A stretch of DNA of 24,270 nucleotides from a virus. Its lineage: Duplodnaviria > Heunggongvirae > Uroviricota > Caudoviricetes. This document shows, piece by piece, positions 1 through 6,000 of this stretch. The DNA is taken from the IMG/VR virus record IMGVR_UViG_2695420699_000007; one strand, 5' to 3'. Made by a program: the position numbers. Numbering within the stretch: position 1 is the stretch's first letter; each line of letters opens with the position of its first letter.

Positions 1-3000
1 CAGATGGAAAAAATCACAACAGGTGTGTCATACACCACGTCAGCGGTGGGGACGGGATACTGGTTACTGCAGCTGCTGGACAAAGTCTCTCCGTCCCAGT
101 GGGTGGCAATAGGTGTGCTGGGAAGTCTGCTGTTTGGCCTGCTGACGTATCTGACTAACCTGTATTTCAAAATCAGAGAGGACCGGCGTAAGGCGGTGCG
201 GGGAGAGTAAAGTGATGAAGAAAAAATACGAACTGGTTGTTAAAGGGATAAATAATTACCCGGATAAGATTACTGTTACTGTGGCACTGGAAATTGGTGG
301 GTATCCGTCACTGTTGTTGCCAGATGTGGCGATTAGTCTTGACCGTACTGAAGGTGCCACGCTGGAGTTTTACGAAGCTGAGGCGAAAAAGCAGGCGAAG
401 CAGTTTTTCATGGATGTTGCTGCCGGGTTATGTGAAGGGGATGGTCCGTTGCCGGAAAAGCGGCCCATCATTTTAGAGGCGCAGGATGTGTTGATAACCT
501 ACAGAGGAAAACTACCGGGAATAATTACTGGTTCTCTGAAGACTCCACCGCTGGCCTGAAGACTTAATATATCCAGGGATTTGAAATCGATAAACCCTGA
601 TAAATATCCATGAACGCAAAAATCAGATACGGCCTGTCGGCTGCCGTTCTGGCGCTGATTGGTGCAGGGGCGTCTGCGCCTGAAATCCTCGACCAGTTTC
701 TTGATGAAAAGGAAGGTAACCACACCACAGCATACCGTGATGGTGCGGGTATCTGGACCATCTGCCGTGGAGCCACCCGGGTGGATGGTAAGCCTGTTAT
801 TCCTGGCATGAAGCTGTCGAAGGAAAAATGCGACCGGGTTAACGCCATTGAGCGTGATAAGGCGCTGGCATGGGTGGAGAAAAACATCAGAGTGCCACTG
901 ACCGAACCCCAGAAAGCGGGGATTGCGTCATTCTGTCCGTACAACATTGGCCCCGGTAAGTGTTTCCCGTCGACGTTTTACAGACGGATTAATGCTGGTG
1001 ACCGCAGGGGAGCATGCGAGGCGATTCGCTGGTGGATTAAGGACGGTGGCAGAGACTGCCGTATTCGCTCAAACAACTGCTACGGTCAGGTCTCACGGCG
1101 TGACCAGGAGAGCGCGCTGGCGTGCTGGGGAATTGACAGATAAGTAGAATATTTTGCTGAAAAATGCGGTTTGCTCACACGGGCGGATAACACGAAATCC
1201 TGCGAACTGGCAAAAACTAAGTGAATAAAAGTAAAACCCCGTTTGTTGGCCGCAAGCGGGGTTTTGTGTTTCCTGACTCCGGAAAAGTCAAAGGAGAAAG
1301 TGTGTTTGATTTTAGCAAACTGATTCGGGAGATTCGAATGATGGCTGAAAAATTATCCACCTGGAAGTTCATCCTTATCTGGCGGGTGTTTGTGATTATG
1401 GCTTCCGGTTATTTCATTGGTCAGATACGCTGGTGGTGAAATGAACCGCGTACTGTGCGTGGTCATCATTGCCCTGCTGGTGGCCTGTGGTGCGCTTAGT
1501 CTGGGGCTGAATCATTACCGTGATAACGCCATAACCTACAAAGAGCAGCGCGATAAAAAAGTCAGTGAGCTGGAGCTGGCAAATGCAACCATTACTGATA
1601 TGCAGCAGCGCCAGCGTGATGTTGCTGCACTTGATGCCAGATACTCGAGGGAATTAGCCGATGCGAGAGCTGAAAATGAAACTCTGCGCGCTGATGTTGC
1701 CGCTGGTCGTAAGCGCCTGCGGATCAACGCCACCTGCCCCGGTACCGTGCGTGAAGCCACCGGCACCTCCGGCGTGGATAATGCAACCGGCCCCCGACTG
1801 GCAGACACCGCTGAACGGGATTATTTCATCCTCAGAGAACGGTTGATGACAATGCAGAAGCAGCTGGAAGGGGCGCAGGACTATATCCGCACTCAGTGTA
1901 CTAAGCAGGCTTTTTATTATCCGGAGGATGTATGAAGAAATTACAGGTAACGGTAAAACCTTTTCAGGGAACAATTCCGTTCCGTGTTTTGCAACATGGC
2001 CGTGTTCTGCTTGAAGAGGTGTTCAGAGGTAAATGCACTGAATGTTATTCACGAACATATGAAGTGAATGCCACGCATGAAGAATTCACCGTTGAGTGTG
2101 TGATGAATACTGATAAATGCCGAATGGTATCCGCTGAATTACAGCCAGTGTGTTGAGCGACCTTATTATCCATGCGCGGTATTGTCGCCGTATTCCTGCA
2201 TTAACAGAGACCGCAGCCCGACAGGGAGACTCCTCTGCGAGAGTGTGCGGGGATAATCAAAAACGATACACACCGGGGTTTACCGCGTAAACGGAGCGCG
2301 GCGTTCTCCCCTCATGGTCGCCCGTCCGGTGCGATGGTGGAAGAAACTGGAATCTGTTCAATAAAAAAACTGCCGTGTTGGAGTCACAGCAGTAATGTAC
2401 TGATTGGGTAGAAGATTATTATTGTTATGCTTTATTTTTATTCTATATGGCTGATTATTTCAATTCGGAATTAATACAGCTAATGTCTGTGATTTTTTAT
2501 AAATTCAGCAATATAAAGAAATAGTTATATGAACAGCCATCGCAGAGCATACTGTGTATCATTCTTTTTTATAGTCAACTGACGGGCATATTTTATGTCT
2601 GCTGCCAGCTCCCGGCGGCAAGATTCAATGACCCACGCAGAAAAATTACCTGAACCTTTCAGGTCAAGAGCGATGTTAATTTGTTCAATTATCTGGTTTG
2701 GAAATCGGATGTTGCGGGTTGTTGTTCTGCGGGGCCGGTTTTTCGATGACATTTTCTTTCCTCTGGTGACAAGCTATATGGCGAGGATTTTTCATGGCTG
2801 TGCTTCGTACGTTACCGGGCAGAATCAAAACTCTGAACACCCGGCGGGTGAATATTCTGAAGGGTGAACAGCGTCGTGTCAGTGGCAGTGCCCGGGTTTC
2901 CCTCAAACGTCGTATCTGGCGGAGGGATGCCGGACACTGTTGTCTCTGTAGACGCGTGGTTGACCTTTGTGACAGTGAACTCGATCACCGCATTGCACTT

Positions 3001-6000
3001 CAGTTCGGTGGTGGTAATGAGGAGACGAACCTCTGGACCCTCTGTACTGAATGCCATCGCCAGAAGTCAGCGAGTGAAGCGGCGAGTGGTATGCCTGATC
3101 CGACGTTGCCTGAGCTTCCTGATGGCACGCTCAGGGCCGACGGAATCACTGGCCTGTGACCAGACCCGGGGGGGGATCATCCGGCGAAAAAAAACGATCG
3201 CCCCGGACACCGCCCCCCGTCTCACGCAGAGAAAAAATTCCCGTTTCAGGGCAGTTAACATGTTAACTGGCTGTCCGGGCATTTTTGCGGTTTTTATCTT
3301 TATTATTCAGTTTGTTGTGCGGAAAAAATGTTAACTGGCTTTTTCAGCAAATGTTAACCAGGCAGCAGTTAACATTTGCGGCATGAGACGCCGGGAAAAA
3401 TGGGCTGAACCATACCCGGCTGAGTGCGTTCTGGACCCGGGAGGAGGCTGTGCTGACAACGCAAAAACGAAAATTTGCGCTGGCGCTCATGTCCGGGAAA
3501 AACAAAACAGCGTCAGCCATTGCCGCCGGTTATTCGGCGAAGACCGCCAGGGTTAAAGGCTCGCAGCTGGCAAAAGATCCGGAGGTGCTTGCGTTTATAG
3601 CCCGTAAACAATGCGAGACGGTGGAGGTGGATGAGGTTCCTGTTTACCGGCAGAAAAAATCAGAGCAGGAGGATAAACCCCGTCGCCGTGAGGCGGCTGC
3701 AATACCACAGCCGGACGAAAACAATCCGGAGATGCCACCGTCCGCGGTGATGTCTCCTGGTATTGAATATATGGAGGATGGTCTTCCCGATCCGGTGAAA
3801 GCGATGGGGCGTCTTCTGGTGGAGAACATTAATACCGACCCCAGGCTGGCGCTGGATGCGGCTTATAAGCTGGCGCAGTTCACGCACCATAAAAAAGGGG
3901 ATGCCGGTAAAAAATCGGCAAAAGGTGACGCGGCGAAAAAAGCGGCTAACCGTTTTGCGGTGCCACCACCACCCCGCCTGGTGGTGAATAATGATAATGA
4001 GGGCAACGGATGATACCTGTGTGGAGCACGGCCTGCCCGGACTGGGCAGAGCGCCTGAAAAAGGGGCTGTCGATTATTCCGGCTCCGATTTATCCGGACC
4101 AGGCTGCACATGCACTGGCGATTTTTAAACAACTGCGAATTGTGGATGCACCGGGTAGCCCGACATTCGGGGAGTCCTGTGCACCGTGGGTGTTTGACCT
4201 GGTGGCGGCCCTGTTTGGCTCCTACGATGCGCAGACCGGTGTTCGCCATATCAAGGAAGTGTTTATCCTTATCCCCAAGAAAAACAGTAAGTCCACGCTG
4301 GCTGCGGGGATCATGATGACGGCGCTGTTACTGAACTGGCGGCAGGCGGCGGGCTACACCATTCTGGCCCCGACCGTGGAGGTGGCGGCTAACGCCTTCA
4401 ACCCTGCCAGGGATATGGTACGACGGGACGATGATCTGGATGACCTCTGTCAGGTGCAGACACATATCCGGACCATCACCCATCGGGTGACGGACACCAC
4501 CCTGAAGGTGGTGGCAGCCGATCCGAATACGGTGTCCGGTATCAAGTCCGTGGGGACACTGATTGATGAACTGTGGCTGTTTGGCAAGCAGTACAAGGCG
4601 GAAGACATGCTACGTGAAGCCATCGGCGGGCTTGCCTCCCGTCCGGAAGGGTTTGTGGTGTATACGACCACCCAGTCGAATGAACCGCCCGCCGGGGTGT
4701 TCAGACAGAAACTGCAGTATGCCCGGGATGTCCGTGACGGCAAAATTCATGATCCGCACTTTCTGCCGGTGATTTTTGAGCATCCTCCTGAAATGGTGGA
4801 AAGCGGGGCTCACCTGCTGATGGAAAACCTCGCCATGGTTAACCCGAATCTCGGTTATTCGGTGGATGAGGCCTTTCTGTACCGGGAGTACCGTAAAGCC
4901 CGGGAGGCTGGTGAGGAAGCATTTCGTGGCTTCATGTCAAAACACGCCAATGTGGAAATCGGTCTTGCCCTGCGTTCTGACCGCTGGGCGGGCGCGGATT
5001 TCTGGGAGCAGCAGGGCAGGCGCGTCAGCCTGGACGATATCCTGCAGCGCGCTGATGTGGTGACGGTGGGGATTGACGGCGGGGGCCTGGATGATCTGCT
5101 GGGAATGTACGTGACTGGCCGTGACAGGGAAACCCGCGAATGGCTGGGCTGGGGCCATGCCTGGGTGCATGAAACCGCGGTGGTCAGACGGAAGAGTGAG
5201 GCATCCCGGTTTCAGGATTTTGTGGCCTGTGGAGACATGACGATTGTCCGTCGGGTCGGGGATGACACGGCGGAAGTGGCGGAGTATGTGCGTCGTATTC
5301 ATGAGGCTGAGTTACTGGATCATATCGGTATTGACCCGTCAGGTGTGGGGCAGATTCTGGATTCACTGGCGGAAGCCGGGATCCCCGATGAGAGTGTGGT
5401 GGGGATAAGCCAGGGCTGGAAGCTGGGCGGGGCCATCAAAACCACCGAGCGCAAACTGGCTGAGGGAGTGCTGGTGCATGGTGGTCAGCCACTGATGGCC
5501 TGGTGCGTTGGCAATGCCCGGGTGGAGCCTAAAGGTAACGCCATTCTTATCACCAAACAGGCCAGCGGACGGGGAAAAATTGACCCGCTGATGGCGCTCT
5601 TCAATGCGGTGTCCCTGATGTCCCTGAATCCGGAACCGAAAAAGAAAGCGTATGAGGTTTTTTTCATATAACCCTGCTCACCCTGTAACCATCATGAACC
5701 GCTGCGGCGGTTTTTTTATTTTCAGGAGGCTGATGTGACTCTTAAACGGGCCTGTTCCCTGCTGACGGTGAAATCCTTCAGTGAGGATGAACGGGTGATC
5801 ACCGGGATTGCGTCAACGCCTTCTCCGGATCGGGATGGTGACATCCTGGAGCCGGAGGGGGCGGAGTTTGGCAGTACGATCCCGTTTCTCTGGCAGCATG
5901 ACCATTCCCGCCCTGTAGGCCAGTGTACGGTGCGTCGGGTCAGGGAAGGGCTGGAAATCACGGCAATGCTGGTGAAGCCGGAGCCGGGGATGCCCTCCCA

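Follow-up and report, generated by a model that had tools for sequence, protein, structure and literature searches.

A probable HK97-type cos region with 3' cohesive ends between the HNH and terminase genes of an Escherichia coli Stx-phage-like prophage

Introduction

Where does a Shiga toxin (Stx)-phage-like prophage of Escherichia coli cut its DNA for packaging, and which sequence elements and proteins take part? The question is raised by a 24,270-nucleotide stretch of viral DNA assigned to the Caudoviricetes (IMG/VR virus record IMGVR_UViG_2695420699_000007; hereafter the window, meaning the whole stretch), which comes from a lambdoid, Stx-phage-like prophage of E. coli and represents its late region. 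An HNH endonuclease gene lies in it upstream of the genes for the small (TerS) and large (TerL) terminase subunits, and the initial annotation had proposed that the spacer between the HNH gene and terS contains the cohesive-end (cos) site. Our comparative analysis of sequences and published phage ends argues strongly for this location. Positions 3160 to 3449 most probably form the cos region of an HK97-type packaging module, which would generate 3' overhangs with the aid of the HNH protein.

Results

The cut can be placed through a close relative whose ends have been mapped. PhageTerm analysis of induced Lys8385Vzw virions indicated cos packaging with 3' cohesive ends and a cohesive sequence, CGCCCCCCCT, at the genome end (PMC7946995; Zhang et al. 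2021); that article gives the 10-nt cohesive sequence alone, without the surrounding architecture. Lys8385Vzw (MT225100) is an Stx1-converting phage with the same HNH-spacer-terS module as the window (TerL 99% and HNH 87% identical to the window's), and its spacer differs from the window's at few bases, keeping the upstream G-run, the five GTTAAC half-sites and the nick region. The MT225100 record is cut exactly at CGCCCCCCCT, ending with ...GGACACCGCCCCCCCT and restarting with CTCACGCAGAG...; its start reads CTCACGCAGAGAAAAAATT..., and across the record junction it is colinear with window positions 3205 to 3239, with one mismatch. This homology predicts nicks between 3220 and 3221 on the top strand and between 3210 and 3211 on the bottom strand, and on the strength of the alignment we assign cos to 3211-3220 with high confidence (positions marked + or - below are relative to the top-strand nick). 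The cohesive ends, whose position had been considered unreadable from sequence, can therefore be placed in the C-rich tract by homology to mapped ends.

Among relatives, the sequence GACACCGC, which lies directly before 3211-3220 and overlaps it, is nearly invariant. The overhang predicted for the window, CGCCCCCCGT, recurs in several other independent prophages together with all other cos elements, and the commonest variant among prophages is CGCGCCCCCT. Literature searches with the overhang sequences found nothing relevant. One IMG/VR contig (IMGVR_UViG_2681813226_000009, locus L087) opens with TCTCACGCAGAG, corresponding to window position 3220, one base off the predicted nick; this start may stem from reads of packaged DNA or simply from an assembly that broke at the C-run, and further IMG/VR contigs break at 3249 and 3321.

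The proteins encoded on both sides of the spacer fit this placement. The HNH, TerS, TerL, prohead protease-capsid fusion and portal genes are all intact open reading frames (ORFs) with full-length family matches. With the PhageTerm-mapped ends of a near-identical relative falling in the same spacer, the proposal of a cos site between HNH and terS, beside the terminase, is borne out. TerL carries the Pfam domains TerL_ATPase and TerL_nuclease, is 23% identical to HK97 gp2 over its full length (BLASTP E 7e-12) and has PHROGs 9 and 2699 in common with it. A sequence search of the PDB with TerL returned HK97 TerL, 6Z6D, as its sole match. By these sequence criteria, TerL belongs to the HK97 clade.

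The HNH ORF matches Pfam PF01844 (E 5e-6; 26.9 bits against a cut-off of 21.4), and the motif layout CxxC...DH...N...CxxCH is found in its 121-aa product, the zinc-binding Cys4 and the DH, N and H residues being invariant among relatives. The protein is 61 to 68% identical to the HNH protein encoded at the same position in 15 distant relatives. Its size of about 120 aa and its HNH (beta-beta-alpha-metal) motif are those of gp74-like packaging HNH proteins, a group reportedly described by Kala et al. in 2014. HK97 gp74 has been shown to stimulate TerL-dependent cos cleavage. PHROG 589 is matched by both the window HNH and gp74 (4e-39 and 6e-24), as are PHROGs 144, 5956, 333 and 119 and Pfam HNH, and it is through PHROG and Pfam alone that the two proteins are connected.

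The terS gene starts with GTG (GTG CTG ACA) behind a strong Shine-Dalgarno (SD) sequence, GGAGGAGG, at 3440-3447. TerS residues 2 to 57 match Pfam Terminase_2 (PF03592; 35.8 bits against a cut-off of 26.1); the protein falls in PHROGs 641 and 51 and weakly matches structures of the SF6 G1P DNA-binding domain (4zc3/2cmp). Its N-terminal 55 aa are 60 to 75% identical in the 15 relatives, all Enterobacterales, and 47% identical in Burkholderia phage vB_PR2a, whereas identity to relatives in the rest of the protein is just 25 to 39%. An N-terminal domain so much better conserved than the remainder fits a conserved DNA specificity.

The 15 relatives comprise 14 prophages with an HNH-spacer-terS arrangement, obtained from a scan of one genome per species (genera Kluyvera, Enterobacter, Atlantibacter, Buttiauxella, Kosakonia, Citrobacter, Entomohabitans, Pantoea, Phytobacter and Erwinia), and Salmonella phage FSL SP-016. 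Their TerS proteins are 33 to 49% identical to that of the window. Nucleotide identity to the window is about 60% in the HNH gene and about 55% in terS, and it reaches 67 to 76% from the G-run to the first palindrome, a peak that is the signature of a cis-acting site. The pattern GACACCGC...CTCAC.C.CAGAAAA.TT.CCC...GG.GT.AAC.TGTTAAC is nearly invariant, many columns from GACACC to GTTAAC being strictly so.

In the relatives' loci of about 5 kb, the motif GTWAACRT occurs almost only at -33 (10 of 15), at +34 and, inverted, at +40. The last two form a palindrome whose counterpart in the window, described below, is matched by GTGTAAACATGTTAACAG in all 15 relatives, and in every one of them the start codon of terS, ATG (GTG in two), sits at the palindrome centre, about 40 bp past the nick. 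The half-site at -33, GTAAACAT (loci L005-L019), lies at the mirror distance of the +34 site. In relatives with this copy, candidate TerS sites would flank the cut, and the E. coli lineage has lost it: the -33 copy has decayed to GAAAAAAAAC in the window and to GTAAAAAAC in most siblings. Farther afield, phage vB_PR2a (TerL 55% and TerS 35% identical to the window's) still carries CTCACGCGCAGAAAATTTCCCC, and its terS ATG is enclosed by an inverted repeat, GTTAA-N5-TTAAC, even though the gene has one codon more; Xanthomonas phage Xp10 has GTGTAATCGTTTAATCAG at +24, where no gene starts. The palindrome is therefore conserved as DNA, beyond its coding sequence.

The window itself is rich in the same motif. 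Five of its eight GTTAAC sites fall within 3254-3373, and ATGTTAACYRG (at most one mismatch) has five matches in 3251-3375 and one elsewhere, against 0.99 expected window-wide; none of 100 shuffles reached six matches. All five half-sites lie downstream of the nick, spanning +34 to +155. The initial annotation had seen three GTTAAC-based palindromes or repeats and expected such sites to flank the nick. Those at 3252-3269 and 3348-3378 (here 3347-3379) were confirmed, whereas 3326-3339 holds a single half-site with no extended palindrome, and the flanking arrangement does not apply to this lineage, in which every half-site is on the terS side and the upstream element is the G-run. The sequence at 3326-3339 repeats 3257-3272 in direct orientation (15 of 16 positions match, a score reached by 0 of 500 shuffles), and the perfect 12-nt arms at 3347-3358 and 3368-3379, separated by 9 nt, form the strongest short-range inverted repeat in the window. 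Among 79 E. coli sequences (window and Lys8385Vzw included), 77 keep this inverted repeat and 77 keep all five half-sites.

The distance from nick to terS is 228 to 230 bp in the same 79 sequences, against about 40 bp in the distant relatives, and the E. coli lineage carries a leader before terS (Table 1). Window 3260-3279 (ATGTTAAC-TGGC-TGTCCGGG) resembles ancestral terS codons 1-3 joined to codons 14-16, which suggests recombination into the 5' end of an old terS; we conjecture that the present terS came with its leader by such an event. No donor or intermediate for the leader was found, a TerS scan of IMG/VR giving only relatives 91 to 99% identical. A tandem duplication of the whole cos-proximal leader was unsupported, local alignment of 3205-3272 with 3273-3470 yielding the 16-nt half-site repeat only.

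A 24-codon ORF (3260-3334, + strand) starts at the ancestral terS ATG within the palindrome and encodes a hydrophobic peptide, MLTGCPGIFAVFIFIIQFVVRKKC. Of the 79 E. coli sequences, 77 keep it open; several non-synonymous changes, a single frameshift and a single truncation were seen, and its SD sequence is degraded relative to the ancestral GGAGGG. The ORF is probably a relic, a small membrane peptide being the alternative.

Base composition changes along the spacer: GC content is 0.67 at 3170-3229, where a C-rich run, CCGCCCCCCG, occupies 3210-3219, and 0.30 to 0.37 at 3260-3349. The G/C-rich tract noted earlier at about 3160-3230 is thus real, with a G8 run and a C-rich run and an AT-rich stretch after it. 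A G-run of 6 to 9 residues is found in 14 of the 15 distant relatives, locus L010 having G7 at the aligned place, and a G-run lies 42 to 45 bp before the right end of the record in HK97, Xp10 (G5) and Lys8385Vzw. By count it is not over-represented (three G7 matches against 8.4 expected), so its significance comes from conservation in relatives. Among E. coli siblings its length is hypervariable, from G5 to G11. On the other side of the cut, the post-nick box is nearly invariant in the 15 relatives and still recognizable in vB_PR2a and in the Xanthomonas phages Xp10 and phiL7.

The G-run also borders two rearrangements. In PPompW-type prophages (locus L105, LC567822.1 15712-17170), the IS110-family insertion sequence ISEc20 adjoins the cos G-run at window position ~3171; these copies are without the lysis genes and HNH between the Q/tRNA region and ISEc20, part of the G-run is lost as well, and they would presumably not be able to cut cos unaided. 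Target choice by IS110-family elements depends on sequence, and this family may favor the G-run or the cos flank. Among E. coli relatives chosen by TerS similarity, a sharp mosaic boundary lies at window 3150-3175, with 60 to 100% of alignment columns variable across the HNH gene versus less than 30% from about 3200 onward. The boundary suggests that right-arm and left-arm modules have recombined, with breakpoints at cos or adjoining it.

The module is common in its host. Modules like that of the window were found in 5,248 of 5,426 complete E. coli genomes, and the number of matching places per genome with a match has a median of 4 and a maximum of 23. Over its whole length, the window is 98% identical to a prophage of strain UTAK-6. 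The nearest phage records are Stx2a_WGPS6, YYZ-2008, BP-4795, 1717, 2851 and many Stx1a and Stx2c phages, and Stx-converting and related phages are 93 to 98% identical to the window over HNH-spacer-terS. A promoter and terminator search of the spacer found nothing exceeding shuffle expectation, which fits read-through by the late transcript. An Rfam scan of 2400-3700 at E values up to 1 gave a single chance miRNA match (20.7 bits against a gathering score of 70), indicating no structured RNA in that interval.

Coordinates of the features are collected in Table 1. The DUF3950 gene, which separates the Rz/lysis genes from HNH and runs in the opposite direction, has the look of a moron-style insertion a short way inside the right genome end. 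Peptidase_S78 (prohead protease) and Phage_capsid (major capsid) are joined in one 645-aa ORF located 5' of the portal gene.

Table 1. Features of the packaging region and neighboring genes in the window (predicted roles are marked as such)
Feature	Position	Strand	Remarks
Lysozyme gene	610-1143	+	
Rz gene	1417-1935	+	
DUF3950 gene, 75 aa	2525-2752	-	
HNH endonuclease gene, 121 aa	2794-3159	+	Putative accessory nuclease for cos cleavage
Spacer, 290 bp	3160-3449		
G8 run, conserved upstream cos element	3168-3175	+	-53 to -46 from the top-strand nick; cosQ-like by position
Predicted 10-nt 3' cohesive end CGCCCCCCGT	3211-3220		By homology to Lys8385Vzw CGCCCCCCCT
Post-nick box CTCACGCAGAGAAAAAATTCCCG	3221-3243	+	A6 tract at 3232-3237 (+12 to +17); candidate primary TerS contact
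Perfect 18-bp palindrome CAGTTAACATGTTAACTG	3252-3269		Half-sites +34 and +40
E. coli-lineage leader, ~180 bp, AT-rich	3270-3449	+	Three more half-sites; absent from the 15 distant relatives
Single half-site ATGTTAACTGG	3328-3338	+	Half-site +108
Inverted repeat GCAAATGTTAAC-N9-GTTAACATTTGC	3347-3379		Half-sites +131 and +148
TerS gene, 187 aa	3450-4013	+	N-terminal helix-turn-helix-type DNA-binding domain
TerL gene, HK97 type	4010-5671	+	
Prohead protease-capsid fusion gene	5735-7672	+	
Portal gene	7884-9248	+	

Discussion

In the mechanism that we propose, the data provide the protein families, the pattern of conservation and, through homology to mapped ends, the nick position, and we infer the pairing of elements with proteins and of strands with nucleases. 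TerS, TerL and the adjacent HNH protein would together make staggered nicks in concatemeric DNA at the two positions predicted above, leaving 10-nt 3' cohesive ends, so that the virion chromosome would start at 3221, just upstream of terS, and end at 3220, just past the HNH gene. The site would have three parts, the second of which is the nick region, GACACCGC(N6)T/C, where the slash marks the cut. Since the G-run that forms the upstream part is common to HK97 and Xp10, its function is probably tied to the TerL/HNH components that they share, or to packaging termination; as it lies on the side that the translocating motor meets first and occurs across TerS types, a role in one of these two is the most economical guess, and a cosQ-like function can be suggested only tentatively.

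The downstream, cosB-like part would consist of the A-tract box at +1 to +23 and the GTWAACAT half-sites, a probable binding region for the helix-turn-helix-type TerS. TerS on the A-tract box, on the half-sites or on both would position TerL and HNH to nick the strands 10 nt apart. We lean slightly toward the GTTAAC half-sites being TerS-binding elements of a cosB-like kind. In the E. coli lineage, the ancestral start-codon palindrome would have been parted from terS by the leader and its three further half-sites.

Several observations weigh against parts of this proposal. The nick in this prophage is placed via the mapped ends of a relative, and the overhang is one base apart from the mapped one. 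The text of PMC7946995 prints impossible coordinates (50,977-50,953), a typo, and MT225100 is flagged circular, so the Lys8385Vzw mapping depends on the stated sequence and on the cut point of the record. BLASTP and a shallow, three-sequence hhalign profile gave no significant similarity between the window HNH and gp74. The half-sites are candidate TerS-binding sites, identified by sequence. Downstream of the nick, FSL SP-016 and the 14 prophages of other genera have a single palindrome only, which means that the ancestral architecture of cos did not include the three extra half-sites. Copies of the entire spacer within E. coli are too alike to reveal selective conservation of the half-sites, which are indistinguishable in the variability profile because everything downstream of ~3175 is nearly invariant.

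The single palindrome of the distant relatives also speaks for a narrower account, in which cos is as described, TerS reads the A-tract box, as in HK97, whose TerS recognizes an A-tract element at +15 to +29, and the GTTAAC repeats are leftovers of duplication or recombination, or a decoupled palindrome that regulates terS. Indeed, the palindrome holds the terS start codon in all 15 relatives, where its downstream half is coding (MLT...), window 3260-3279 resembles terS codons 1-3 fused to ATGTCCGGG of codons 14-16, and the A-tract box is conserved as far as Xp10 and Burkholderia phages. However, the non-coding half of the palindrome, GTGTAAAC, is as well conserved as the coding half, and the copy at -33 lies in non-coding DNA in 10 of the 15 relatives. 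Moreover, the inverted repeat of the Burkholderia phage persists around the ATG in spite of the extra codon, the Xp10 copy is far from the start of terS, and the motif has been multiplied fivefold and then kept in nearly all E. coli copies. We regard this account as possible but doubtful.

Two broader doubts concern the site as a whole. This prophage copy might be packaging-defective, through an inactive cos variant or defects elsewhere, and its site a relic. The number of matching places per E. coli genome, the loss of HNH, lysis genes and part of the G-run to ISEc20 in PPompW-type siblings and the altered base of the overhang are compatible with this idea, which nonetheless seems improbable given five intact packaging and head genes and the recurrence of the same overhang variant, with the remaining cos elements, in independent prophages. 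Headful (pac) packaging, with the spacer serving as a pac site or merely as a regulatory region, we consider highly improbable. TerS does fall in the Terminase_2 family, in which the members with studied structures (SPP1, SF6 G1P) are proteins of pac phages, and the GenBank note of the relative phi330 says 'circularly permutated', but that note also mentions cohesive ends and the phi330 paper contains no packaging data. The PhageTerm result for Lys8385Vzw is fixed 3' cos ends, TerL groups with HK97 TerL, and the nick-region DNA is homologous to the ends of HK97 and Xp10.

The preferred reading, an HNH-aided cos site with 3' ends, is an instance of a known system: the association of HNH, terminase and cos is established for HK97, and the ends of a near-identical Stx1 phage are published. 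The comparative architecture is a modest addition, worth noting rather than a discovery. For annotation, it allows cohesive ends to be placed to one base by sequence in a prophage family common in E. coli and Shiga toxin-producing E. coli, which includes YYZ-2008, BP-4795, 1717, 2851 and the Stx1a and Stx2c phages. A cos position at this resolution helps to orient genomes, to tell packaging-competent prophages from defective ones, such as those disrupted by ISEc20, and to foresee what DNA the phages could mobilize. The G-run, the nick region, the A-tract box and the GTWAACAT half-sites are testable targets for the biochemistry of HK97-type packaging.

We further speculate, with a good deal of reserve, that a clade with HK97-type TerL and HNH proteins (E. 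coli Stx phages, HK97, and Burkholderia and Xanthomonas phages) shares a modular, apparently undescribed cos architecture. In it, a G-run fixed 41 to 45 bp upstream would track TerL/HNH, perhaps as a cosQ-like termination signal or a nuclease-positioning signal, and the downstream half would track the TerS type. In the subgroup with Terminase_2 TerS, a TerS-binding palindrome would lie over the terS start, suggesting autoregulation of TerS through binding to its own cos; this coupling would have been broken in the Stx-phage lineage by the leader.

The tripartite logic of the window, an upstream element, a nick site and a downstream repeat array before terS, is shared with phage lambda, for which Feiss and colleagues reportedly described a cosQ-cosN-cosB order with TerS-binding repeats between the nick and the terS gene. 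Lambda has 12-nt 5' overhangs, no HNH partner and a cosB with an integration host factor (IHF) site, and its TerS (Nu1) and TerL (gpA) belong to families different from those of the window. The IHF consensus WATCAANNNNTTR (at most one mismatch) has no match in 3160-3449, and the spacer therefore provides no evidence for a site like I1 of lambda.

HK97 is closer. Its record is linear and bounded by 10-nt 3' overhangs, and its right end, G10-ATCA-N38-ACCGCCGCCAAA up to the cut, is in the same register as G8-ATCA-N41-ACCGCCCCCCGT in the window; the distance from G-run to end is 42 bp in HK97 and 45 bp in the window, and ACCGCC occupies -12 to -7 in both. The two also share the order HNH, cos, terS-terL, homologous TerL proteins and an A/T-tract past the nick, the A-tract box of the window being analogous by position to the TerS site of HK97 with its A-tract. 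In contrast, the post-nick DNA of HK97 is unrelated to that of the window and has no GTTAAC repeats. TerS shows no similarity to HK97 gp1, which has no Pfam Terminase_2 match and belongs to an unrelated family (PHROG 5601, versus 641/51 for the window), and this difference fits the divergence of the post-nick DNA. The split between the proteins mirrors that of the DNA, which is HK97-like upstream of and at the nick and not downstream. The head genes differ in order, being terS, terL, portal, protease, capsid in HK97, whereas the protease-capsid fusion precedes the portal gene in the window.

The Xanthomonas phages Xp10 (Xipdecavirus) and phiL7 (Eisenstarkvirus), with 3' cos ends and TerL proteins 48 to 54% identical to that of the window, provide a comparison on the other side of the cut; PhageTerm assigns ZP3, which is closely related to Xp10, to the class COS(3'). 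As in the window, the HNH gene lies at the right end, and a G-run precedes the nick by about 41 to 45 bp. Xp10 has the left-end sequence CCCATTCGCAGAAAAATTACCCG in its record, a homologue of window 3221-3243 with the same first base. The post-nick box of Xp10 and phiL7 reads CNCATTC(G/C)(C/G)AGAAAAATTACCC, and its start base is that of the Lys8385Vzw left end; in phiL7 the box begins 9 nt into the record, consistent with the overhang having been written at the other end. The two phages differ from the window in their overhang (...GGACAGTCT), in having no multiplied GTTAAC half-sites and in a TerS that is short or split, encoded 300 bp from the end and matching only the C-terminal part of the window TerS. 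The alignment with HK97-like cos regions that the initial annotation had called for thus puts the G-run and ACCGCC in the register of the HK97 right end and the post-nick box in that of the Xp10 left end, and by this comparison three independently delimited genomes, Lys8385Vzw, HK97 and Xp10, agree on the register of cos.

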